Source of the DNA: a phage
Reading direction: 5' to 3' (one strand)
Length of the DNA: 64,000 bases
Sequence record: PZ019084.1
Part shown: piece by piece, positions 13,304 through 47,515 of the stretch
Layout: every line of letters begins with the position of its first letter
Position numbering within the stretch: position 1 is the stretch's first letter
The notes under the pieces: model-generated
What the model saw: only the letters and a program-made list of their open reading frames with translations
What the model was told of the DNA's origin: nothing
Database searches by the model: none
Position numbers and translations under genes: made by a program

Positions 13304-14434
13304 TTATGGATAGGTATAGATGATACCAGTTTCTAAAGCAGTTTTATGAATGATGTATCCATTGCGCGATTCTTGAACATCAACTTCTGGATAGTCTTTC
13401 ATCATCTTCTGAAGAGTGTAACGATGCAAGTAGTACTTACTATCTGGGTCGTCAGTTTTCCAATCTTTACCTTCTTCAGTCATTTTTTGGATTTCATCCA
13501 TAACCCACCAACCGCACCAGATGTAAGCTGAAGTGCGATGTGGAAGAGGATGAACATAAGGTAATTCACCTTCTGGTTCCGGAGCAACTTTATCAGTTAC
13601 CTGAACTTGACCTTCTGCTGTGATAGTTTTGCTATCATAGTCAGTTGCTGTAACGACAGCAGTAACTTCAATAGTTTGACTTCCAATAGATGATGTATCA
13701 ACGGTGTATACATTAGTTGACCCTTCTACTGGAGAAGAATCTTTCTTCCATGAATATTCAATTTGCGCTTCTTCTGGAGCATCAGTGACATTAGCAGTAA
13801 ATGTAGCCGAAGCATCTTGCTGAACATTAATAGAAGGAGGAGTCAATGTAACCTGTGGATTCATTGTCTTCTTATTAACAGTCAGTGATACTTCATTAGA
13901 AGTAACGCTCAGTGCATCATAATCTGTCGCTGTTACTTGAGCTACACACTTGATTTTTTTAACTCCGCTTGTAGTAGGAGTGTAATTGAATGTAGCACTA
14001 GTTGCTTCGCTCACAGGAGAACCGTCAACATACCATTGATACGTAGCAGATGCACCTGATGGCTGCGAAGCTAAGGCGGCAGTAAATTGAACTGGGGTTC
14101 CAATTACTCCAGCTGAAGGACTATTTGGAGTTACAGCTAAGGTAGTCGTTTGTGTCTTATTTTGAACTGTGATAGTTGTAGTAGCTTCTGCTGTTTCAGC
14201 TTCAGCTTCTGGAACTGTATTTGTTGCAACTACTTTAATAGTCTTTTGACCGGCAGGTCCTTTTAGTACATAACTAAAAGTTGCTTCAGCTCCATCTTGT
14301 GGAACATCATCTACAGTCCAAGCATAGGTAATAGTTCCGCCTCCAGTTTCACCACTGGGTGTAGCAGTAAACTGCTGAGTCTGATCTATAACTCCAGTAG
14401 GTGTTTTAGGAGTTATATCAACTGTAAAAGCCAT
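13304..14434 (-). CDS. hoc: highly immunogenic outer capsid protein, 376 aa
   Basis: Repeated Ig-like T/V/S-rich modules plus a C-terminal capsid-binding domain. Length matches T4 Hoc. Confidence 0.9.
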   Translation of the reverse strand: MAFTVDITPKTPTGVIDQTQQFTATPSGETGGGTITYAWTVDDVPQDGAEATFSYVLKGPAGQKTIKVVATNTVPEAEAETAEATTTITVQNKTQTTTLAVTPNSPSAGVIGTPVQFTAALASQPSGASATYQWYVDGSPVSEATSATFNYTPTTSGVKKIKCVAQVTATDYDALSVTSNEVSLTVNKKTMNPQVTLTPPSINVQQDASATFTANVTDAPEEAQIEYSWKKDSSPVEGSTNVYTVDTSSIGSQTIEVTAVVTATDYDSKTITAEGQVQVTDKVAPEPEGELPYVHPLPHRTSAYIWCGWWVMDEIQKMTEEGKDWKTDDPDSKYYLHRYTLQKMMKDYPEVDVQESRNGYIIHKTALETGIIYTYP

Positions 14435-14443
14435 AAGTTATCC

Positions 14444-24247: not shown

Positions 24248-25212
24248 TGTATTCTTTAGAGGAATTTAATAATCAAGCAATAAACGCAGATTTTCAACGT
24301 AATAATATGTTTAGCTGCGTTTTTGCGACAACTCCATCAACTAAAAGCTCTTCGTTGATAAGCTCAATTAGCAACTTTTCTTATAATAACTTGGGCCTAA
24401 ATTCAGATTGGTTAGGATTAACCCAAGGTGATATTAATCAGGGAATTACAACGTTAATTACTGCTGGAACACAAAAACTGACAAGAAAATCAGGAGTCAG
24501 TAAATATCTAATTGGTGCAATGAGTCAACGTACAGTTCAAAGTTTATTGGGCTCATTTACAGTTGGTACATATTTAATTGACTTCTTTAACATGGCATAT
24601 AACTCATCTGGATTGATGATATACTCTGTAAAAATGCCAGAGAATAGATTATCTTATGAAACTGACTGGAACTATAATTCTCCTAATATTCGCATAACCG
24701 GGAGAGAATTAGACCCTTTGGTTATTTCATTTAGAATGGATTCAGAGTCGTGTAATTATCGTGCAATGCAAGACTGGGTCAATGCTGTTCAAGACCCAGT
24801 AACTGGATTACGTGCTCTGCCGCAAGATGTCGAGGCGGATATCCAAGTTAATCTTCATTCTCGTAATGGATTGCCTCATACTGCGGTGATGTTCACCGGA
24901 TGCATTCCAGTGTCAGTGAGCGCTCCTGAGTTATCATATGATGGAGATAACCAAATAACTACATTTGATGTTACTTTTGCGTATAGAGTCATGCAGGCTG
25001 GAGCAGTTGATAGACAAGCTGCGCTTGAATGGCTTGAATCTGCTGCTATAAATGGTATTCAAAGCTCTTCTGGAAATAATGGAGGTGTTACTGAACTATC
25101 TAGTTCGCTTTCACGACTTAGTAGATTAGGTGGAACTGCAGGAAGCATTTCAAACATTAATACTATGACAGGGATTGTCAATTCGCAGAGTAAAATATTA
25201 GGAGCAATATAA
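24247..25212 (+). CDS. 54: baseplate tail-tube initiator, 321 aa
   Basis: Length and position match T4 gp54. TAATG coupling to gene 48. Confidence 0.9.
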   Translation: MYSLEEFNNQAINADFQRNNMFSCVFATTPSTKSSSLISSISNFSYNNLGLNSDWLGLTQGDINQGITTLITAGTQKLTRKSGVSKYLIGAMSQRTVQSLLGSFTVGTYLIDFFNMAYNSSGLMIYSVKMPENRLSYETDWNYNSPNIRITGRELDPLVISFRMDSESCNYRAMQDWVNAVQDPVTGLRALPQDVEADIQVNLHSRNGLPHTAVMFTGCIPVSVSAPELSYDGDNQITTFDVTFAYRVMQAGAVDRQAALEWLESAAINGIQSSSGNNGGVTELSSSLSRLSRLGGTAGSISNINTMTGIVNSQSKILGAI

Positions 25213-25214
25213 CA

Positions 25215-25236
25215 ATGGGGACCTTTCGGTCCCCAT
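25215..25236. terminator. bidirectional terminator between gene 54 (+) and the minus-strand early block
   Basis: ATGGGGACC-tttc-GGTCCCCAT followed by GTTTTT. Confidence 0.7.
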
Positions 25237-25240
25237 GTTT

Positions 25241-25531
25241 TTATTTACGGAATGAAATGAAAGCAGCAACTGAAGCAACTAAACTGTCTTCAATATAAAC
25301 TTCAATTTTTACCGGAGCTTCTGACTCAAATTTACCTGTTACCACACCCTGAAAAATACTTTCAGTCTGTTCTGGCTTTGAAAAATTTTCAGAAGGAAAA
25401 ATTCCGAACTTTTTATCTGTTCCAAAAATTTTAATAAATTCATCGTAAACTGCTTCATTAAAAGCATTATCAGCAGGAATAACGCCTTCAACTACAAGTT
25501 CTTGACCTAAAAAGCGCAAAGAAGATTTCAT
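25241..25531 (-). CDS. hypothetical 96-aa protein (alt.-3 position)
   Basis: ORF with a GAGGA RBS, preceded by an early-promoter cassette. Confidence 0.65.
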   Translation of the reverse strand: MKSSLRFLGQELVVEGVIPADNAFNEAVYDEFIKIFGTDKKFGIFPSENFSKPEQTESIFQGVVTGKFESEAPVKIEVYIEDSLVASVAAFISFRK

Positions 25532-25538
25532 TTTGTGT

Positions 25539-25592
25539 TCCTCATGTTATGTCAGTAAGATTACTATAACACAACACGATGGACTTGTAAAC
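25539..25592 (-). promoter_or_regulatory. early promoter/leader cassette, copy 1 of a 54-bp repeat
   Basis: Minus strand has GTTTAC (25592-25587), 18 nt, TATAGT (25568-25563), then a leader with a GAGGA SD. It matches 41539-41592 at 53 of 54 positions. Confidence 0.65.
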
Positions 25593-27649
25593 TACATCTT
25601 GAACTTTTTAGACATTCCGTTAATGTTAACCAAAGAAGCTAAGATTTGAGAAACTTCGTTTTCCTCTTCTTTTGATTCTTCTACAAGGAATTGATTAAAT
25701 CCAGCCATTGGACGAACTTCACCAGTTTCCATTAAATGGTCGCCATCATATACTGATTCTTCTAATTGTTCAGAAGGAGGAACGATTGTACCTTCGATTA
25801 GATACTTGTTATAAGCAGTTTCTTTCATAAAGTAAGTACTTACTTTATTAATCTTCAGTAAAATTCCACGTGGTAGAATAACTTCAGCTTCTGATGGAAA
25901 TCCTGATAAATGACCTGGAACGATAACTTTGATTCGCTCAGCTCCTTTAATTACCATACCCACGCTAGTTTCAGCATCTTCATTAGCATATGTAGAATGA
26001 CTACCCATATGCATTAAATCTTCAGCATCAACTGAACCTTCTCCTTCACCAGAAAATACTGCGCCGGAATCATCTAGAGCCATATAGTTTTTACCATGCT
26101 CACCGAAGATATTTGGTTTAAGCGATGTGGATACGAAGTTCTTGAAATAAAACATTTTATTTTCAATATTATGACGTAAAGTTTTAAAAGTAACTTCTTG
26201 TCCACGATAAAGCGTAGTTCCTGGAGGAAGAACTGACCCTTTGGCAAAGGCAGAATCCATTGTCTCGATGTGTTTAATAGCTCGTTCCATGTATTCTTCA
26301 CGGGTAGAATCTGGTTTACCCAAGAGGAACGAGTTCATTTCAACATATGAATCTGCACAATAATCTTCAATTACATCAGACTCAGCCTGAGTTAATCCTT
26401 TTGGAGTTACTTCAGTACTTGCATATTCATATGCCTGGGCAGCAGATTCATTAATCAATTTATAAATGCCATTCATGACAAATTGAATAATAGCTACCTT
26501 TTCGTCTGGCGTGGCTTTAGAACCTTTAACTAAATCATTAATAATTTTCTTAATAACATCAAAGCTATTAGAAATATTAATATCAGCAAGATCGCTCAAA
26601 ATTTTATCAGTTTTATAATCAAAGAATTCTTTATTCTTTAAATATTCTTGAGAACCTTGATATGTTATATCGCTCTGCAACTTGATGGATGGATCACGTA
26701 AACGTGCATGGGCTAATGCAATATGATTTCGGAAGTTTTCTAGTTCATAATCGCTAGATTTAAAACGAGAAGCACTTCTCATACCACCGATAGCTCCTTT
26801 GCTGAAGTTTGAACCAATCTGAATAACCCCAGAGTTCATTGGTCCTTCTGCTTTATATACCGGAACTTTAGATTCAAACTCTTGATATTTCTTGGCAGCG
26901 AAGCTATCACCCTGAAGTGAAGCATCGACAGTAGAATATTGAGCTTGTGCTGCTAATCGACGACTAATTTTAGTTTTCTGAATAACAGCTTGATCCGTGC
27001 GCTTATCATTTTCTAAAGCAATAGAAGCAGCAACAGCAACAGCTTTAGGAACAGCATTACCTGTTTTAACATCTACATAAACATCACCAACCTTTGATTC
27101 AACTTTTGTGAATAACTCAGTTGAAATAGGAGGTACACCTGGAATGTCTTCTAAATTGGCATTTTTACGGTAAACCATAATATATGCATACTTTTTATCA
27201 TAATCCCAGATTTCCTTTAAAAGAACATATCGACCTGCTCCTTTAGTACGTACTAAACGGTCAGCAATAACTTGCATTTGACGAGCTGCGCCATTTGTTT
27301 TACTTTTTAGTACGCGGAATAGGCATGCGTCAATTTTATACTGTTTCATTGTTTGAAGAGCAGTATCAAAAACGGCATTAATGACACCAATTGGATTTCC
27401 ACCCAAGTTTTTAAGTTTAACTAATGATAGTTTCTCATTAACACCTATCATTACGATATGCATCATTTTATCGCCTGGCTTAACGTTTTTATTTGTATCA
27501 CCGCCAGAGGTGTATGTACAAAATCTAAATCCAGGAAGCACACTTTCTTCGCCGGCTTGAATAGCAAAAATTTGAGGTATTTTATGCTTAGGATTTAAGT
27601 TAACAACCGGCGCCGAAGCGCCGTCAAATAATTCTGTAATAAGTTCCAT
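25592..27649 (-). CDS. Alt-like NAD:protein ADP-ribosyltransferase paralogue, intact 685 aa
   Basis: The N-terminal 230 aa are homologous to the neighbouring alt copy. R-S-E ART signature is present: TLYRGQ, NFVSTSL, SEAEVILPRG. Confidence 0.85.
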   Translation of the reverse strand: MELITELFDGASAPVVNLNPKHKIPQIFAIQAGEESVLPGFRFCTYTSGGDTNKNVKPGDKMMHIVMIGVNEKLSLVKLKNLGGNPIGVINAVFDTALQTMKQYKIDACLFRVLKSKTNGAARQMQVIADRLVRTKGAGRYVLLKEIWDYDKKYAYIMVYRKNANLEDIPGVPPISTELFTKVESKVGDVYVDVKTGNAVPKAVAVAASIALENDKRTDQAVIQKTKISRRLAAQAQYSTVDASLQGDSFAAKKYQEFESKVPVYKAEGPMNSGVIQIGSNFSKGAIGGMRSASRFKSSDYELENFRNHIALAHARLRDPSIKLQSDITYQGSQEYLKNKEFFDYKTDKILSDLADINISNSFDVIKKIINDLVKGSKATPDEKVAIIQFVMNGIYKLINESAAQAYEYASTEVTPKGLTQAESDVIEDYCADSYVEMNSFLLGKPDSTREEYMERAIKHIETMDSAFAKGSVLPPGTTLYRGQEVTFKTLRHNIENKMFYFKNFVSTSLKPNIFGEHGKNYMALDDSGAVFSGEGEGSVDAEDLMHMGSHSTYANEDAETSVGMVIKGAERIKVIVPGHLSGFPSEAEVILPRGILLKINKVSTYFMKETAYNKYLIEGTIVPPSEQLEESVYDGDHLMETGEVRPMAGFNQFLVEESKEEENEVSQILASLVNINGMSKKFKM

Positions 27650-27652
27650 GAT

Positions 27653-29729
27653 TTATCCTTGAACGAACTTGTAAGGCATGTTTGTAATATCTATGCAAGA
27701 CGCAATAATTCCAAGAGATGATTCTACTTTTTGTTTAACATTTGATGAAACAAATGATGCAAAGTCAACTCTGTCTTCTATTTCAATATCACCTGTCATT
27801 GCAACTACTTCACCAGTTTCCATTAGACGGTCACCGTCATAAATGACTGATTCGGTGAGTTCTTCCGTAGTCATAACTTCAGCTTGAATGAGTTTTGTAT
27901 TATTAGATGTTGTTCCGTCATTATTAGAAGCATCAGTTATTTTATTAACTTTGACCAATAACTTCAGCTTCTGTTGCTATTCCGAGACTTCCTGGATATA
28001 CAACATTAACTTTATGAGCTCCATCAATTGCCCATCCTATTTGAACTTTAACGTATTCAGGATTTTCTTTATACGCTCTTATTTCGTTTGGATTAATAGT
28101 TATTCCTTCTTCATTTTTATCAACTGTTAATTCATTACGAGCTTCTGGTTCTAAAAGACCAATACCAGCATGTGTAATTCCAAAACGTCCAAAAATGATA
28201 GGAGTTAAAGAAGTAGATACAAAATTTCTGAAATAGAACACTTTATTTTTAACTAGTGCTTCGTATATAGGAGCAGTCATACTTTGAGCACGATAAACTG
28301 TAATGCCTTCTGGTATACGGTCACCATTTTCAAAAGCTGAATCTAAGTTATTTATAGCAGATTCAATTTCTTTTTCACTCATTACATCATATCGTTCTGG
28401 ATTGTAGCGTCCTAAAAGAAGATTATTGATGTCAGTATATCCTGAACCACAATACTCTCTAATGCCGCGCTTTTGTGATGGAGTATATTTAGAACCATCA
28501 CGGGCAATAGTAATATCAATCATTGGACCTGCACCAATTCCAGAAAAGCTATAAATCATTCGTTTGAGGAATTTAGTTTTTGCTGCTTTCCAGGAATTTT
28601 TAGTTATTTCTTCCCAGACTTCATCTGGCTGTCCTTTACGGGTTTTATTATGTTTATCAAGCCAAGTATCTTTATATTCTTCAAAGAATTTATTAATAGC
28701 TGCTGCATACTTCTCTAAACATTTTATTGAAGTAGTTGGTTCATTTTTAATCGCATTAAGAATTACATCTTTAATTTTTTCAGAAACTTCATTAACCTCA
28801 CTTTTTGAAAAGAATTTATAATCATAGTGAAGTTCATCTGCAGTTCCTTCGGCAATAATTTTTGCTGCCTTAGTTTTAGAAGCTAGTGAATTAATTCCAA
28901 GTTTCATTTCTTCCGCTTCGGGAATTAAAGGAGCTGTGGCAGGTTTATTGAAATTAGCTGCAGTAGATTCATACTTTTGGAATAATTCACTTTCAAATCT
29001 AGAAGATTCCAATGACTGACTTTGTGCAATTGCTCTACGGGAAATTTTAACTTTAACGATTACAGCTTGGTCAGAACGTTTATCATTTTCTTGCGCAATA
29101 GATGCTGCAATTGCCTCATTTTTAGTTACTTGAGCTCCAGTATCTTTATTGATATAAACATCACCGACCTTCGATTCAACTTTAGTAAAGAGCTCGGTGC
29201 TAATTTCCGGAACTCCTGGAATGTCTTCTAATGATACATTTTTGCGATGTATAAGAATATATGCGTACTTTTTATCGTAATCCCAGAGTTCCTTAAGAAG
29301 GACGTATCTGCCACCTGAACGACTACGGATAAGTCTATCAGCAATAACTTGAATTTGTCGAGCTTGACCAGCAGTTTTAGACTTAAGAATACGAAGCATG
29401 CAGGCATCAATTTTATACTGGCGCATCGTCTGCATTGCAACAGTAAAAACTGAATTGATATAATTAATTGGGCTTGGACCGAGACCTTTTAATTTAGCAA
29501 TTGAACCTTTAGCAGTTAATGTAAAAGGAACAATATGCATCATTTTATCGCCCATCTTTAAATCGCGATTAGTATCACCTCCAGATGTATAGGTACATAA
29601 ACGAAAGCCTGGTTGTTCAATTGCGTCATCAACATGAACTGAAAAAATTTGCGGTATTTTCTTCTTTGGATTTAAGTTTGTAATCGGAAGAGTAGTATCT
29701 TCGTCAAATAATTCTGTAATAAGTTCCAT
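27653..29729 (-). pseudogene. alt: Alt ADP-ribosyltransferase gene interrupted by a frame-shifting deletion (595-codon and 101-codon pieces)
   Basis: ART motifs VYRAQ, NFVSTSL and TEAEVI are followed by a premature TAA at 27945-27947. The remaining C-terminal tail (LVKVNKITD...YDGDRLMETGEV...) is in another frame starting at 27958. Confidence 0.8.
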
Positions 29730-29781
29730 CATAGCCTCTCTAGTGTTTATTCTATTTATAAAATTAAAGGCCCGAAGGCCT

Positions 29782-29970
29782 TTAATAATCTATTGGTAAG
29801 AGAGTACGATATATTTCAAACTTTGGTCCTTTTTCATAGGCATCAAATGTTTCTGTGAATTTATTATAAGCATATGCATCTACAAATTCGAGAATGACTT
29901 GTGATACAGAAGTAGAAACATCTCCACCTTCTTTTTGAGCAATGACAATTGTTTCTAAGTAAGCTTTCAT
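29782..29970 (-). CDS. hypothetical 62-aa protein between gene 30 and alt
   Basis: ORF overlapping the ligase stop by ATGA-type coupling. Confidence 0.6.
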   Translation of the reverse strand: MKAYLETIVIAQKEGGDVSTSVSQVILEFVDAYAYNKFTETFDAYEKGPKFEIYRTLLPIDY

Positions 29971-31430
29971 AGACCAGTTACCTCATGAAAATCACCAAAT
30001 ACATCCTCGAATGTATTAGCTTTAGTTTTATCTTCACGTAAACGAATCGCAATTGGAAGAAATAATTTAACGTAATCAGTGCGGCCATCAGATTTTAACC
30101 AACCGTTGCATTCACACTCTAGAATTTTTCCAATATAATAATTTTGGTTTTCCATAATGCGAGTACGGTCAAGTTCATGTGATTTTACACCGGCTTTATC
30201 TTTTAAGCCTGAACCAGCATTTACTTTAATTTTTCCACATTCTGATTCAAGAATAAATCCACCGGCTTTAGTAGGGTCTTTACGGTGAGGATAAATTCCT
30301 ACAATTTTTAAATCAACATCAATTACTTCTTTAAATTTATAGAGATTTTTTGAACGAGCATTTTCCCATAATCCATCGGTATTTTTGAGAATAATACCTT
30401 CAAGACCTTGGTCAATATACTTTTTATAAATTACCTTAGCTTCATCTAGGTTATTTACTACCTGGTTTTCAATTAAAATTACTTTATCATATCCTGATGT
30501 CATTTGTTCTAGTTTAGAAAAACGTACATCATATTTTAAACGAAACGCTGGAAGACCGTATATTTCTACCAACGGGACATAATCCCAGACCTGAAACTTC
30601 ATGCATTGAGCTTCTTTTTCAGAAATGGTTCCTTTTAAGGATTTATTGGCGATTCCATTAGAAGTAGTACGAGATTCCGCTACTTCGGCGAATTCTTTAG
30701 CTTTACTAATTTCAGGATAAGCATCAAAAAGAAAATCTAGGCCTTCTGGTTCCTTTTTAACTTGCTCATGGTATACCAATTCGCCATCAATTAACACACC
30801 TTCTGGATGAATCTGGCGGGCTTCAGCAGTCATTTTGATTAACTCTTCCTTAAGAAGATCTAATCCTAGATATTCATTACCAGCTCGTGATAAAAGACGA
30901 ACATCATCTAATTCATCGCCTCGGACTTCAGCAAAACACCGAGCTCCATCTGCTTTTAACTGCGCAAAGGCTGGAAACTTGATATTCTTACTAATACCTT
31001 TTTCATCATAAGAACTTGCCAGCATTTGAGGTTGTTCAGGAATTAAACCTGGCCAAACTTTGTTTGCAATAGATACTGAAGCACCGCATTCAAGGTCTCG
31101 CATCATCACTCGACGCAAAACTTCAACATCATCCTTTTTACCATCAGTGATATATCCAGTTAATTCCTCAATTGCAGCATTTCCAGTCAATTTCCGAGTA
31201 GCTAACGTGAATTCAATGAAGTCAAGCATATCGGTAATAGTCAGCATTCCAAAACTCTGGGTAGCAATACCAGGCTTAGGCCATTTCTTAATATAATACT
31301 GTAACCCACGAGAATAAGTCAGACGATATACCCGTTTAAGCAATTCATTATCTTTATTCTTTTCAAGAATTGCTTGCTTCTGCTTAGTTGATCCAATAGA
31401 TGCTATTTCATTCAGAATTTTAAGAATCAT
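29967..31430 (-). CDS. 30: ATP-dependent DNA ligase, 487 aa
   Basis: Adenylation motif AQLKADGARC (KxDG). Length matches T4 gp30. Confidence 0.95.
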   Translation of the reverse strand: MILKILNEIASIGSTKQKQAILEKNKDNELLKRVYRLTYSRGLQYYIKKWPKPGIATQSFGMLTITDMLDFIEFTLATRKLTGNAAIEELTGYITDGKKDDVEVLRRVMMRDLECGASVSIANKVWPGLIPEQPQMLASSYDEKGISKNIKFPAFAQLKADGARCFAEVRGDELDDVRLLSRAGNEYLGLDLLKEELIKMTAEARQIHPEGVLIDGELVYHEQVKKEPEGLDFLFDAYPEISKAKEFAEVAESRTTSNGIANKSLKGTISEKEAQCMKFQVWDYVPLVEIYGLPAFRLKYDVRFSKLEQMTSGYDKVILIENQVVNNLDEAKVIYKKYIDQGLEGIILKNTDGLWENARSKNLYKFKEVIDVDLKIVGIYPHRKDPTKAGGFILESECGKIKVNAGSGLKDKAGVKSHELDRTRIMENQNYYIGKILECECNGWLKSDGRTDYVKLFLPIAIRLREDKTKANTFEDVFGDFHEVTGL

Positions 31431-43210: not shown

Positions 43211-44380
43211 TTAAAAATATTTTTTAAAACTCATCATAACTTTATCATCAACATCATTATCAATCTGTGCTACAAGATAAGATGATAGTTCTACTTCTTG
43301 TGGCGCGGATTGAACATTATCAGAATTAAGATATTCACGAATCCAAGGATACGGGTGTTTAACCGGAGCATCGGTAATTGGGCATGGAAGACCGCACTGT
43401 TTCATACGAGATACAGTTAAGTAATCAATAAAGCTCCACATGCTATTTGTATTTAATCCAGGAACATCGCCATCTTTAAATAAATGAACTGCCCAGTCTT
43501 TTTCTTGACGGTTAACTTCCATGAAAATATCAACTGCTTCTTGTTCACACTCTTGGGCAATTTTAACCCATTCATCGCCATCAGTGCCAAGTTGAAGTTG
43601 ACGAATAATATATTGAGTGCCTTTAAGGTGAAGCTGTTCATCACGAGCAATGAACTTCATAATCTTGGCATTACCTTCCATGATTTCCATGTTTTTATGG
43701 AAGTTAAAGGTACATGCGAAAGATACATAAAAACGAATAGCTTCCAATGCGTTGATTACATGAAGGCAAAGATAAAGAGATTTCATTAATGCTCGTTTAG
43801 TACATTCAACAACTTTGCCTAACTCTTCTTTACGAAATCCTTCTGATAAAATTCCTTCATAATCTTCAACCGCATTCTGATATTCACGAGTCTTAACTAG
43901 AACATCATCATAATAGCGACCAATGGACTCGGCACGTTTCATAATAGCTTTATCTAATACAATCTCATCAAACACCTTTGACGGATCAGTATAAAGATTT
44001 CGCATAATATGAGTGTATGAACGACTGTGAATAGTTTCACTAAAAGTCCATGTAGCAACCCATGTATCAAGGCTTGGGTCTGAAATTAATGACATAAGTA
44101 CAGCAGACGGTGCACGACCCTGAATGCTATCCAAAAGTGATTGATACTTCAGGTTATTAGTAAAAATATCTTGCTGATACTGAGGAAGCTTGTTAAATTG
44201 TGCAGCATCCATCATTAAGTTTACTTCTTCAGGACGCCAGAAAAATGACAACTGCTTTTCAGTTAAATCTTCAAAAACTTTATGGCGTTGAATATCATAA
44301 CGCGCAATACCAAGACCTGAACCGAAGAACATAGGTTCTTTTAAAACATCAACTGGATTTGTATTAAAAACTGTAGACAT
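43211..44380 (-). CDS. nrdB: ribonucleotide reductase beta subunit, uninterrupted 389 aa
   Basis: Full-length R2 protein in one continuous ORF, with no intron. Confidence 0.95.
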   Translation of the reverse strand: MSTVFNTNPVDVLKEPMFFGSGLGIARYDIQRHKVFEDLTEKQLSFFWRPEEVNLMMDAAQFNKLPQYQQDIFTNNLKYQSLLDSIQGRAPSAVLMSLISDPSLDTWVATWTFSETIHSRSYTHIMRNLYTDPSKVFDEIVLDKAIMKRAESIGRYYDDVLVKTREYQNAVEDYEGILSEGFRKEELGKVVECTKRALMKSLYLCLHVINALEAIRFYVSFACTFNFHKNMEIMEGNAKIMKFIARDEQLHLKGTQYIIRQLQLGTDGDEWVKIAQECEQEAVDIFMEVNRQEKDWAVHLFKDGDVPGLNTNSMWSFIDYLTVSRMKQCGLPCPITDAPVKHPYPWIREYLNSDNVQSAPQEVELSSYLVAQIDNDVDDKVMMSFKKYF

Positions 44381-44414
44381 ATTATTCTCGCTTATTATAG
44401 GTTTAAATATTTAA

Positions 44415-45206
44415 TCACATATTATGTATAAGCACTTCAGTCTGAAATGATGCACCTTTCTTTTGCTTCCTGTACATGGTTTCAAAATATTCGATTTTGA
44501 AATTATTAGAAAGGGCCCAATCTTTTAGAATATAATTATTAATATCGTCTGATAGATTATTAGTGATAATAAATTTAGACTTTGAGCGTTTAATTTTATC
44601 TAATAATTCTAATTCATCCTTTTCTTCCCATCCTGAATATTTAAATTTAGTAGAAAGATATGGCGGGTCAATGAATAAATTTTTGTTTTCAAAATCTAAA
44701 TCTTTGAATGATTTATTACTAAATGTAAATCGGTGCTGTCTATTTTTAAATTCAGAAAATTTATCCTGTTGAGACTTATTAAAAGAAGTTCTAGAATACT
44801 TGGCTCTATTGGCGAAAGCCGCATTATAGTTACCATTACTAGAAAATCGGATTAACGAACTGAATGAAAATAAATGTAAAACATAAAGATATAGTCCATT
44901 TTTGGTTTTATCATACTCTTTTGACAGATTATAAAAGGGTGCTGAATCTTTGTCATTCAAATTGAAGTCTTCAATAATTTGAACTATATCATTGATTGAA
45001 GATACTTTCATCTTTTTATACATGTCTATAAGAGGAGTGTTAATATCATTACATATAACATCTCTCTGGCAATTCATAGAAAATCCAAGACCGCCACAAA
45101 AAGCATCCAAAACAGGCTTATCGTCAAAGCGGTTTGAAAATTGTCTAATAAATGGCATATACTTGTGCTTTGCACCCGGATATGTTATTGCAGGTAGGTC
45201 TTTCAT
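44415..45206 (-). CDS. Dam-like DNA N6-adenine methyltransferase (alpha-type motif order), 263 aa
   Basis: N-terminal YPGAKHK, SAM motif I DAFCGGLG, catalytic motif IV DPPY. LYVLH and W.E.DE..LL blocks resemble T4 Dam. The gene is very AT-rich and has its own TGATATAAT extended -10 element upstream. Confidence 0.8.
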   Translation of the reverse strand: MKDLPAITYPGAKHKYMPFIRQFSNRFDDKPVLDAFCGGLGFSMNCQRDVICNDINTPLIDMYKKMKVSSINDIVQIIEDFNLNDKDSAPFYNLSKEYDKTKNGLYLYVLHLFSFSSLIRFSSNGNYNAAFANRAKYSRTSFNKSQQDKFSEFKNRQHRFTFSNKSFKDLDFENKNLFIDPPYLSTKFKYSGWEEKDELELLDKIKRSKSKFIITNNLSDDINNYILKDWALSNNFKIEYFETMYRKQKKGASFQTEVLIHNM

Positions 45207-45250
45207 GTTATTTCTCGTTTGTTAGTGACTCGTCCGTGAGTCAAATTATA

Positions 45251-47515
45251 TCATAATTTACAGGATGAACAATCTTCAGCTTTTGGAGTTTCTATTTCAT
45301 AATCATCAGTACCGGAACCATCACGAGTATTATGATAATAGAAGTTTTTAATGCCATAATACCATCCGTATAGCATGTCATCAATCATTACAGACATTGG
45401 AACCTTTCCTTTTGGAAAAATCTGCGGGTCATAATATGTATTAGCTGAAGCTGATTGACATACCCATTTCAGCATAATAGCTACCTGCGTAAGATAAGGT
45501 TTATTGCCTTTCTTAGCTAATTTCCACGTATAATCATAGAGGTCTATGTTATGCTCAATATTGGGCACGACTTGATTAAAGGAACCCTCTTTTGATTCTT
45601 TAACAGAGACTGGTCCACGTGGAGGCTCGATACCGTTTGTACTGTTAGAAACTTGGGAAGATGACTCACATGGCATAAGTGCTGATAATGTGCTATTACG
45701 GATGCCAAAGAGCTTAAGGTCTTCCCGCAGCGACGACCAGTCACAAACGTATTTTGGAGCTGCGATTTGGTCAATCTTTTTATTGTACCAGTCGATAGGT
45801 AATTCGCCTCGAGACCAACGAGTGTCTGAATAATATTCGCAAGGTCCTTTTTCTTTGGCGAGCTTAATGGATGCTTTAATGAGTCCATACTGTAATCTCT
45901 CAAATAGTTCATGTGTTAAATCGTTAGCATCTTCATAAGAAGCAAAATTACTTGCCAACCAAGCTGCATAGTTAGTAACACCTACACCGAGATTTCGACG
46001 CTTTTTAGCTTTTTCTGCTTCAGGAACTGGATATCCTTGGTAATCCAAAAGATTATCAAGAGCACGAACTTGGACTTCTGCCAATTCGTTAATTTTATCT
46101 TGGTCTTGCCAATCGAAGTTATCTAACACAAATGCAGATAACGTACACAATCCAATTTCAGCATCAGGACTATTCACGTCATTTGTTGGAATAGCAATTT
46201 CACAACACAAGTTACTCTGACGAATAGGTGCCTTTTCACGAATAAATGGAGTATAGTTATTCGTATTATCAATGAACTGTACATAAATCCTTGCTGTTCC
46301 TGATCGTTCAGTCATGAGCAATTCAAACAGTTCACGGGCTTTAATGCGCTTTTTACGAATATTAGGGTCTTTTTCTGCGGCTTCGTACAATTCACGGAAA
46401 CGGTCTTGGTCTTTAAAATAAGAATAATAAAGTTCGCCACCCATTTCATGTGGACTGAACAGAGTAATGTAGTCGTTCTTTCCAAAACGTTCCATCATCA
46501 AATCATTCAGCTGGACGCCATAATCCATATGACGGATACGGTTTTCTTCTACACCTTTGTTATTTTTCAAAACGAGAAGATTTTCAACTTCCAAATGCCA
46601 AATAGGATAATAAGCAGTAGCAGCGCCGCCACGAATTCCGCCTTGTGAACATGATTTAACAGCAGTCTGAAAATGTTTCCAAAAAGGAATAACACCAGTA
46701 TGACGCACTTCACCTGTGCCAATCTTAGAACCTTCAGCACGAATCATACCAACGTTAATGCCAATTCCAGCGCGTTTGGAGATATATTCAACAATTGAAG
46801 CAGAAGCCTTATTGATAGACTTCAGCGAATCACCTGCTTCAATAACAACGCATGAACTAAACTGTCGAGTTGGAGTACGACAACCAGCCATAATAGGAGT
46901 TGGTAATGAAATCTGTCGAGTAGATACCGCTTCATAAAAACGAATAACGTGTTTTAGTCTATCAACAGGTTCATCTTGATGCAGTGCCATTCCAATAGTC
47001 ATAAATGCAAACTGTGGAGTTTCATAAATTTGACCAGTGGTTTTATCTTTAACTAGATATTTTTCTTTTAATTGCATCGCCCCGGAATAAGTAAATTCCA
47101 TATCCCGCTCGTGCTTAATTTTTGATTCTAAAAATGTAATTTCTTCTGCTGAATATTTTGACAACAATTCAGGGTCATATTTACCTTCATTTACACAGTA
47201 AGAAATATGGTCAATAAATGAACGTGGTTCATATTGTCCGTAAACATGCTTACGAAGAGCAAACATTAAACAGCGAGCGGCTACGTATTGATAATCAGGC
47301 TCTTCAACTGAAATAGAATTCGCAGCAGCCTTAATTACAATGGTTTGAATGTCATCAGTTGTCATTCCATCACGGAGATATGATTTAATATTTTCATATA
47401 ATTCATAAGGATCTACAGATGTTCCTTCGGCTGCCCAAGATAAAACTTTAATAATTTTTTGCGGGTCAAAGCTCTGAGAAACACCACTACTTTTGATAAC
47501 ATTAATTAATTGCAT
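45251..47515 (-). CDS. nrdA: ribonucleotide reductase alpha subunit, 754 aa
   Basis: Class Ia R1 with the active-site NLCCEI and a C-terminal CSSCKL redox pair. Length matches T4 NrdA. Confidence 0.96.
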   Translation of the reverse strand: MQLINVIKSSGVSQSFDPQKIIKVLSWAAEGTSVDPYELYENIKSYLRDGMTTDDIQTIVIKAAANSISVEEPDYQYVAARCLMFALRKHVYGQYEPRSFIDHISYCVNEGKYDPELLSKYSAEEITFLESKIKHERDMEFTYSGAMQLKEKYLVKDKTTGQIYETPQFAFMTIGMALHQDEPVDRLKHVIRFYEAVSTRQISLPTPIMAGCRTPTRQFSSCVVIEAGDSLKSINKASASIVEYISKRAGIGINVGMIRAEGSKIGTGEVRHTGVIPFWKHFQTAVKSCSQGGIRGGAATAYYPIWHLEVENLLVLKNNKGVEENRIRHMDYGVQLNDLMMERFGKNDYITLFSPHEMGGELYYSYFKDQDRFRELYEAAEKDPNIRKKRIKARELFELLMTERSGTARIYVQFIDNTNNYTPFIREKAPIRQSNLCCEIAIPTNDVNSPDAEIGLCTLSAFVLDNFDWQDQDKINELAEVQVRALDNLLDYQGYPVPEAEKAKKRRNLGVGVTNYAAWLASNFASYEDANDLTHELFERLQYGLIKASIKLAKEKGPCEYYSDTRWSRGELPIDWYNKKIDQIAAPKYVCDWSSLREDLKLFGIRNSTLSALMPCESSSQVSNSTNGIEPPRGPVSVKESKEGSFNQVVPNIEHNIDLYDYTWKLAKKGNKPYLTQVAIMLKWVCQSASANTYYDPQIFPKGKVPMSVMIDDMLYGWYYGIKNFYYHNTRDGSGTDDYEIETPKAEDCSSCKL

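Follow-up and report, generated by a model that had tools for sequence, protein, structure and literature searches.

A 17-bp Frameshift Deletion Directly After the ExE Motif Probably Inactivates altA in a Tequatrovirus

A Reading Frame Interrupted at the alt Locus

Does a gene that has kept all three motifs of an ADP-ribosyltransferase (ART), but whose reading frame ends just behind the last of them, still encode an enzyme? This question is raised by the alt locus of the phage sequence record PZ019084.1, of which a stretch of 64,000 nucleotides (the window) was analyzed. Two paralogues lie in tandem on its minus strand, namely altA, the orthologue of T4 alt, which is broken, and altB, which is intact. 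We consider it probable that altA has undergone a private, evolutionarily recent 17-bp frameshift deletion that most likely inactivates it. The original prediction, made from the letters of the window, had left the choice between a recent pseudogenisation, a two-polypeptide arrangement restarting at a TTG codon and an assembly error; the first is now the best supported, given a private allele, the removal of invariant residues and a history of purifying selection.

The minus-strand open reading frame (ORF) at 27945..29732 ends ...LGIATEAEVIGQS and stops, as had been read from the sequence, at the TAA codon 27947-27945, which is adjoined by a second TAA at 27944-27942. Its C-terminus reads ...PGSLGIATEAEVIGQS, so that the stop comes four codons past the ExE motif. 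The ORF starts with two consecutive ATG codons (29732 and 29729) and counts 595 codons from the first. A Shine-Dalgarno sequence, GAGAGG, is well spaced for the ATG at 29729 (-6.4 kcal/mol, versus -2.9 kcal/mol for the ATG at 29732), which is also the annotated start in EC121 and T4. Because of this better Shine-Dalgarno sequence altA is probably 27945..29729 (594 codons) with a product of 594 amino acids (aa), and the 595-aa product claimed before holds for the ORF from its first ATG, but less likely for the protein. All three ART motifs lie upstream of the stop in one polypeptide, i.e. (in the 595-aa numbering, all on the minus strand) R481 at 28290-28292, S506-T-S508 at 28209-28217 and the ExE motif E588-A-E590 at 27963..27971, the last of which aligns with the ExE of CdtA and of the iota toxin Ia. 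Likewise, the N-terminal capsid-targeting peptide is intact and reads MELITE/LFDEDT, the same as in T4, with the site ITE-6 of the prohead protease gp21.

The remainder of Alt is found in an orphaned frame of 101 codons with a TTG start (27653..27958, minus strand), which begins with LVKVNKITDASNNDG... and ends with ...NMPYKFVQG, the C-terminus of T4 Alt. By contrast, the second paralogue altB (25592..27649, minus strand, 685 aa) reads SEAEVILPRGILLKINKV at the place homologous to the break and carries R, STS, ExE, LPRG and the C-terminal tail in one frame. Both the separate frame from TTG 27958 with the Alt tail, now counted as 101 codons, and the in-frame continuation of the neighboring copy past ExE had been correctly recognized in the original prediction.

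Nature and Distribution of the Deletion

When altA is aligned to the alt gene of EC121, a single 17-nt gap is seen, TCTACCACGCGGATTGA, the other 200 nt around it being 100% identical, and the identical gap appears against ECP2301 and T4. The junction is located at 27956..27958 (minus strand), and owing to a shared T the gap can be shifted by one base in either direction. All relatives have the codons L-P-R-G-L-M that altA has lost here, and the protein changes from ...EAEVI-LPRGLM-VKVNKI... to ...EAEVI-GQS followed by two stops. The earlier estimate of roughly 17 nt was thus exact by the EC121 alignment, and the proposal that LPRGx just after ExE had been removed and the C-terminal approximately 100 codons uncoupled is confirmed, with LPRGLM as the lost codons. 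Consistent with this, 60 out of the 60 best phage matches span 618 nt versus the 601 nt of the query. Microhomology at the endpoints of the deletion amounts to 1 nt (T). No repeat was found at the endpoints, with the junction 13-mer being unique in the window, and the only hairpin at the site is a weak one of 4 bp, the ancestral sequence folding no better than shuffled sequences (z ~ -0.5). Since neither a repeat nor a significant hairpin marks the endpoints, no mechanism of deletion can be assigned.

The junction is shared by none of the collections searched: its 41-mer has no match in 50,697 phage records, its 31-mer none in the IMG/VR viral contigs, and its 21-mer none in the GTDB species genomes and none in the JGI metagenome contigs, while the undeleted form, used as a control, is present in four IMG/VR contigs. 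Absence from all four collections indicates that the allele is private to this sequence. An 81-nt query across the junction matched more than 260 phage records, which have the undeleted form, and the best matches listed fall into two pieces 17 nt apart. Of the 120 best database homologues, all have a length of 682-697 aa except for one 379-aa fragment, which is encoded on a 3-kb contig. These listed homologues, bar the one fragment, also answer the objection foreseen in the original prediction, that functional Alt proteins might end at the same point. Compared with its intact orthologues, altA therefore carries a frame-disrupting lesion that is not shared by its relatives. One further record, ESh34, has no feature under the match, but it is simply unannotated there and uninformative on other disruptions.

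What the Truncated Product Lacks

The truncated altA product still matches the profile of the R-S-E class of ARTs, PF03496 (ADPrib_exo_Tox), with 101.4 bits (cut-off 23.4) and an E-value of 5e-29. However, the match covers model positions 2-162 of 196, as compared with 2-195 in the intact orthologue and 13-191 in altB, so that positions 163-196 of the Pfam ART model are lost and the domain is incomplete. The claim that all three ART motifs survive is thus right for R481, STS and ExE in the long frame, but does not extend to the domain that holds them. The tail ORF alone has no Pfam match. Over 15 homologues, including the 43%-identical paralogue altB, the residues E587, E589, V590, I591, L592, P593, R594, G595, K599, N601 and K602 are invariant, and the deleted L592, P593, R594 and G595 are therefore among those kept in both paralogues. 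When the PDB is searched by sequence or by profile, EAEVILPRGLMVKVNKITDAS..KLI is matched to EYEVLLNHGSKFKINKIDSYKDGTITKLI, with which the ART domains of CdtA and the iota toxin Ia close, and the segment EVILPRGLMVKVNKI... to EVLLNHGSKFKINKI..., which likewise lies where these solved domains end. In C3/iota-type ARTs, residues in this position make up the last strands of the fold. AlphaFold models, which were built from shallow alignments and were not used, reached a mean predicted local distance difference test (pLDDT) score of 57.7 for the full-length intact orthologue, with the ART region below 50, and of 43 for the ART domain with the tail; both had two strands after ExE, which were not relied on.

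T4 Alt matures through gp21, the prohead protease, whose cuts at ITE-6 and LTE-619 leave a protein of 68.2 kDa (PMC5694885), a mass that is reproduced from the T4 Alt sequence. In the phage studied here, the first 36 codons of the orphaned frame (27851..27958, minus strand; LVKVNKITDAS...EELTE) encode the final portion of the ART core and the closing residues of mature Alt, as far as the gp21 site LTE, whereas the other 65 codons and the stop (27653..27850, minus strand) encode the Alt C-terminal propeptide with the invariant YDGDxLMETGE. Since LTE is found at codon 36 of the orphan ORF, truncated altA is without 41 mature residues and the whole 65-residue C-propeptide, and both the cleavage site and the propeptide are present in the orphaned frame only, out of frame with the enzyme. 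The YDGDxLMETGE block is invariant in the C-propeptides of both paralogues (27653..27850 and 25592..25790, both minus strand), where it is positioned just past the LTE cleavage site, and the LME within it also fits the (L/I)xE motif of the protease.

Mutation of the second glutamate of ExE to alanine renders T4 Alt inactive (PMC11404850). The catalytic residue of T4 Alt is named E577 in that study, whereas the NC_000866 protein has its ExE at E574-M575-E576 (NEMEV), an offset of one residue; the LTE-619 numbering (PMC5694885) agrees with the NC_000866 protein. From the conservation and domain coverage, the truncated altA product is expected to be catalytically dead or unstable, and the surviving R/STS/ExE motifs should not be taken as a surviving enzyme. 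In the sequence, the deletion directly after the ExE codons takes away the invariant L-P-R-G-L-M and shifts the frame, so that G-Q-S is added before the double TAA. The resulting product would still have its capsid-targeting peptide, its N-terminal and central parts and the residues of the R, STS and ExE motifs; gone would be 41 mature residues in total, with the two final strands of the ART core among them, and the 65-residue C-propeptide. It may still enter heads, presumably as a species of ~66 kDa instead of ~70 kDa, while the downstream 101 codons would represent an un- or barely translated remnant in which decay has not yet begun.

Age of the Lesion and Its Tolerance

Between altA and its EC121 counterpart, 38 codons differ synonymously and five non-synonymously; in the 303-nt tail, a single, synonymous base change is seen. 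The dominance of synonymous changes and the undecayed tail indicate that the gene was under purifying selection until recently and that the lesion is recent. Loss of altA appears tolerable, since alt is not needed on permissive hosts and the second copy, altB, is undamaged. Indeed, Alt is dispensable for head assembly (PMC9958956; PMC5694885), T4 phage with catalytically dead Alt is viable (PMC11404850), and so is T4 delta-alt, although Alt aids the evasion of Mokosh type I by T4 (preprint, bioRxiv 10.1101/2025.11.20.689424).

The locus of T4 itself offers a precedent. There, altB has been reduced by a deletion of ~1.69 kb and a frameshift to a 5' remnant, alt.-1 and alt.-2 (NC_000866 4066..4451), which are 94-98% identical to aa 1-116 of altB of the window and are described in the T4 annotation as an old duplication with a stop codon. 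T4 has therefore already lost one alt paralogue, and the loss seen here, of altA, is the reciprocal one.

Sequencing Error, Restart or Recoding

The most substantial competitor of a real deletion, though clearly the less probable of the two, is that the 17 nt are missing from the record and not from the phage, by an assembly, polishing or consensus error or by promotion of a minority variant, in which case the real gene would be an intact alt of 697 codons. Such an error would account for a junction that is unique among the public sequences searched and for flanks that are 100% identical to relatives, and the deletion starts within the stretch that is best conserved between altA and altB, CAGAAGCTGAAGTTATTCTACCACG, where short k-mers are common to both copies. 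On the other hand, a clean loss of 17 nt outside a homopolymer is atypical for a platform error, and the sequence past the junction is altA-type and not altB-type, which excludes a switch between the paralogues; since the junction 13-mer is also unique in the window, neither gene conversion nor a mis-assembly involving the two copies is accepted. Furthermore, the assembly is not noisy. In a comparison with ECP2301 over ~50 kb, the altA deletion is the only frame-breaking indel within a real gene, all other indels being a multiple of three, a compensated pair in a divergent patch, or intergenic, and among 68 ORFs of at least 100 aa alt is the only truncated real gene, the other differences concerning antisense ORFs, the locus edge and a Hoc length variant. 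The assembly-error option of the original prediction is thereby weakened, altA being the only broken gene in 50 kb, yet it still stands as a rival of some weight. Several points count against a real inactivation and in part on the side of such an error: a sequencing artefact would equally leave an undecayed, perfectly preserved tail; that altA has lost its activity is deduced from the conservation of the residues and the coverage of the domain; and the case for the loss of the last two strands is built on alignments with Pfam and the PDB, together with what is generally known of the C3/iota fold, since the AlphaFold models of the ART stay below a pLDDT of 50. A consensus or assembly artefact is accordingly held to be possible but doubtful.

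If the deletion is real, function might nevertheless be retained, either by two polypeptides, with ribosomes starting anew at TTG 27958 or at an ATG beyond it and fragments that rebuild an active ART, or by a truncated enzyme that is active alone. R, STS and ExE are all within the long product, the tail frame is open for 101 codons, and termination-reinitiation is physically possible, because the TTG overlaps the stop by 11 nt. However, no Shine-Dalgarno sequence precedes TTG 27958, the duplex of -0.7 kcal/mol being equal to the background median, and internal ATGs reach no better than -3.1 kcal/mol, while neighboring gene starts have mostly -5 to -7.7 kcal/mol. Nor does the invariant LPRG loop occur in either fragment, and the tail fragment is without the capsid-targeting peptide. 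A split at this point is seen in no phage record and in no protein cluster. With the C-terminal 138 residues as a tblastn query, 1129 phage records matched, 1097 of which cover at least 80% of the query in one place, and in a sample of 60 rows taken at even intervals, which ranges from phages of Escherichia to those of Acinetobacter and Aeromonas, every row is one unbroken piece. Run with the tail ORF on 1.84 billion cluster representatives, HMMER found 15 matches, namely one spurious repeat protein, eight C-termini of proteins of 679-794 aa and six shorter fragments, and those of the fragments that reach the ExE region keep ExE-LPRG in one frame. Thus, neither the tblastn nor the exhaustive HMMER search revealed a standalone tail family, which together with the lack of a Shine-Dalgarno sequence leaves the two-polypeptide design unsupported and the TTG restart of the original prediction disfavored. 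A scan of 25200-30100 for promoters and terminators gave counts at shuffle level and hence no evidence of a new transcription unit for the tail. Function retained in one of these ways is considered very improbable. Still further down the scale, and scarcely credible, is recoding, in which a programmed +1 frameshift or a bypass like that of gene 60 joins the long frame to the tail frame. Bypassing is used by T4-type phages in gene 60, and a GTT codon of the long frame, ahead of the junction, recurs 13 nt further on in the tail frame. But no slippery or shift-prone motif is seen at ...GGT CAA AGT TAA, the candidate take-off codon has no stop codon directly after it, and the local structure is as insignificant as given above for the ancestral sequence. 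A recoding signal cannot be conserved, because the configuration is present in no relative, and the recoded product would still be without LPRG. Recent inactivation of altA therefore remains the reading that is preferred here.

Implications of an Inactivated altA

As a lesion, the deletion is mechanistically ordinary; it is not a new arrangement and nothing new in kind. Its consequence for annotation is that altA is to be treated as a disrupted gene or pseudogene and not as a 595-aa enzyme accompanied by a hypothetical protein of 101 aa. More generally, the tandem alt paralogues of Tequatroviruses appear individually expendable, T4 having lost altB and this phage apparently altA, in agreement with reports that laboratory strains can do without Alt, which nonetheless matters against particular defenses like Mokosh type I (the preprint cited above). 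A real deletion would make the phage a naturally occurring strain that is altA-null and altB-only, with which the roles of the two paralogues might be told apart. It is also conceivable, albeit very improbable, that the deletion is real and was selected, because loss of altA catalysis was advantageous on the host of isolation or propagation, e.g. by escape from a host system that this Alt allele triggers or by which it is sensed; the truncated protein would then be kept as a non-catalytic packaged core protein, with altB supplying ADP-ribosylation. Were this so, the loss of altB in T4 and that of altA here would show the tandem paralogues to be alternately dispensable effectors whose costs and benefits differ and depend on the host.

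The Locus, Its Relatives and Other Genes of the Window

The window belongs to a Tequatrovirus and has an identity of 96-97% over 20 kb with many T4-like phages of Escherichia and Shigella, with no identical record among the phage records compared. Exact look-ups in a protein collection gave no match either for the 595-aa and 594-aa altA products, the tail or altB. EC121, ECP2301 and T4 share the order gene 30 (ligase), alt.1 and alt, and in most relatives a second Alt-like gene follows immediately 3' of alt. The window has the same T4-type order of gene 30, alt.1, alt, second alt, alt.-3 and gene 54. Gene 30 (DNA ligase, 487 aa; 29967..31430, minus strand) anchors this synteny and thereby identifies altA as the ligase-proximal copy, and the orthologue of alt.1 (62 aa, PF24647; 29782..29970, minus strand), a further synteny marker, is located between the ligase gene and altA.

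At the protein level, altA is 99% identical (591 residues) to the 697-aa Alt of EC121 and of cluster P0001, which has 641 members, and 45% identical to altB. With T4 Alt it shares 68% identity overall, aa 1-245 being essentially identical. Compared to T4 alt, altA is a mosaic, in which residues 1-245 and the C-terminal tail are near-identical, while the central region (28500..29000, minus strand) and the ART domain are of another allelic type, that of 697 aa. Among Tequatroviruses, Alt circulates in no fewer than three types that differ in length and sequence, with 682-686, 694 and 697 aa.

Further along the locus, the alt.-3 orthologue (25241..25531, minus strand; 96 aa, DUF5498, E-value 1e-64) has its wild-type length here; C-terminal extensions of T4 Alt.-3 lead to escape from the CmdTAC defense system (PMC11618068). 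Outside the locus, an ORF of 263 aa at 44415..45206 (minus strand) encodes a D12-class N6-adenine DNA methyltransferase (PF02086, E-value 8e-24, with a DPPY motif). It is flanked by nrdB (43211..44380) and nrdA (45251..47515), and ECP2301 is empty at this place, the gap corresponding to 44374-45223 of the window. In T4 the position between nrdA and nrdB is taken by a mobile endonuclease gene. Hoc, the head outer capsid decoration protein (13307..14437, minus strand), has 377 aa as compared to 473 aa in ECP2301, with 78% identity and the N-terminal ~96 aa absent, which looks like a variant in domain number; with 377 aa, T4 Hoc is of the same length as Hoc of the window.

Comparison With Known Systems

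The nearest characterized system is T4 Alt (682 aa; NP_049811), an NAD+:arginine ADP-ribosyltransferase, which has in common with altA the locus, the N-terminal 245 residues, MELITE and R/STS/ExE. Its C-terminal sequence and LTE site recur in the window as well, but in the orphaned frame, and altA differs from it in being of the 697-aa allelic type, with 68% identity, a divergent central region and the 17-nt deletion after ExE. From the intact 697-aa Tequatrovirus Alt (EC121 YP_010067878; P0001), by contrast, altA is distinguished only by the 17-nt deletion and its consequences. In T4 alt.-1/alt.-2, one of the tandem alt paralogues has likewise been inactivated in the same locus; however, T4 lost the distal altB by a large deletion, whereas in the window it is the proximal altA that has been hit, by a small lesion of very recent date, beside an undamaged altB. 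The C3/iota-type R-S-E ARTs (PF03496), such as CdtA (7vnj/2wn4) and Ia (1giq), align with Alt over the NAD-binding region and the ExE segment, and the pattern after ExE, E-V-(I/L)-L-x-x-G-x-x-(V/F)-K-(V/I)-N-K-I, is common to Alt and the toxins. Unlike these toxins, Alt has a large N-terminal region of head-targeting and unknown function as well as a cleavable C-propeptide, and broken altA is without the equivalent of the last ~34 residues of the toxin ART domains.

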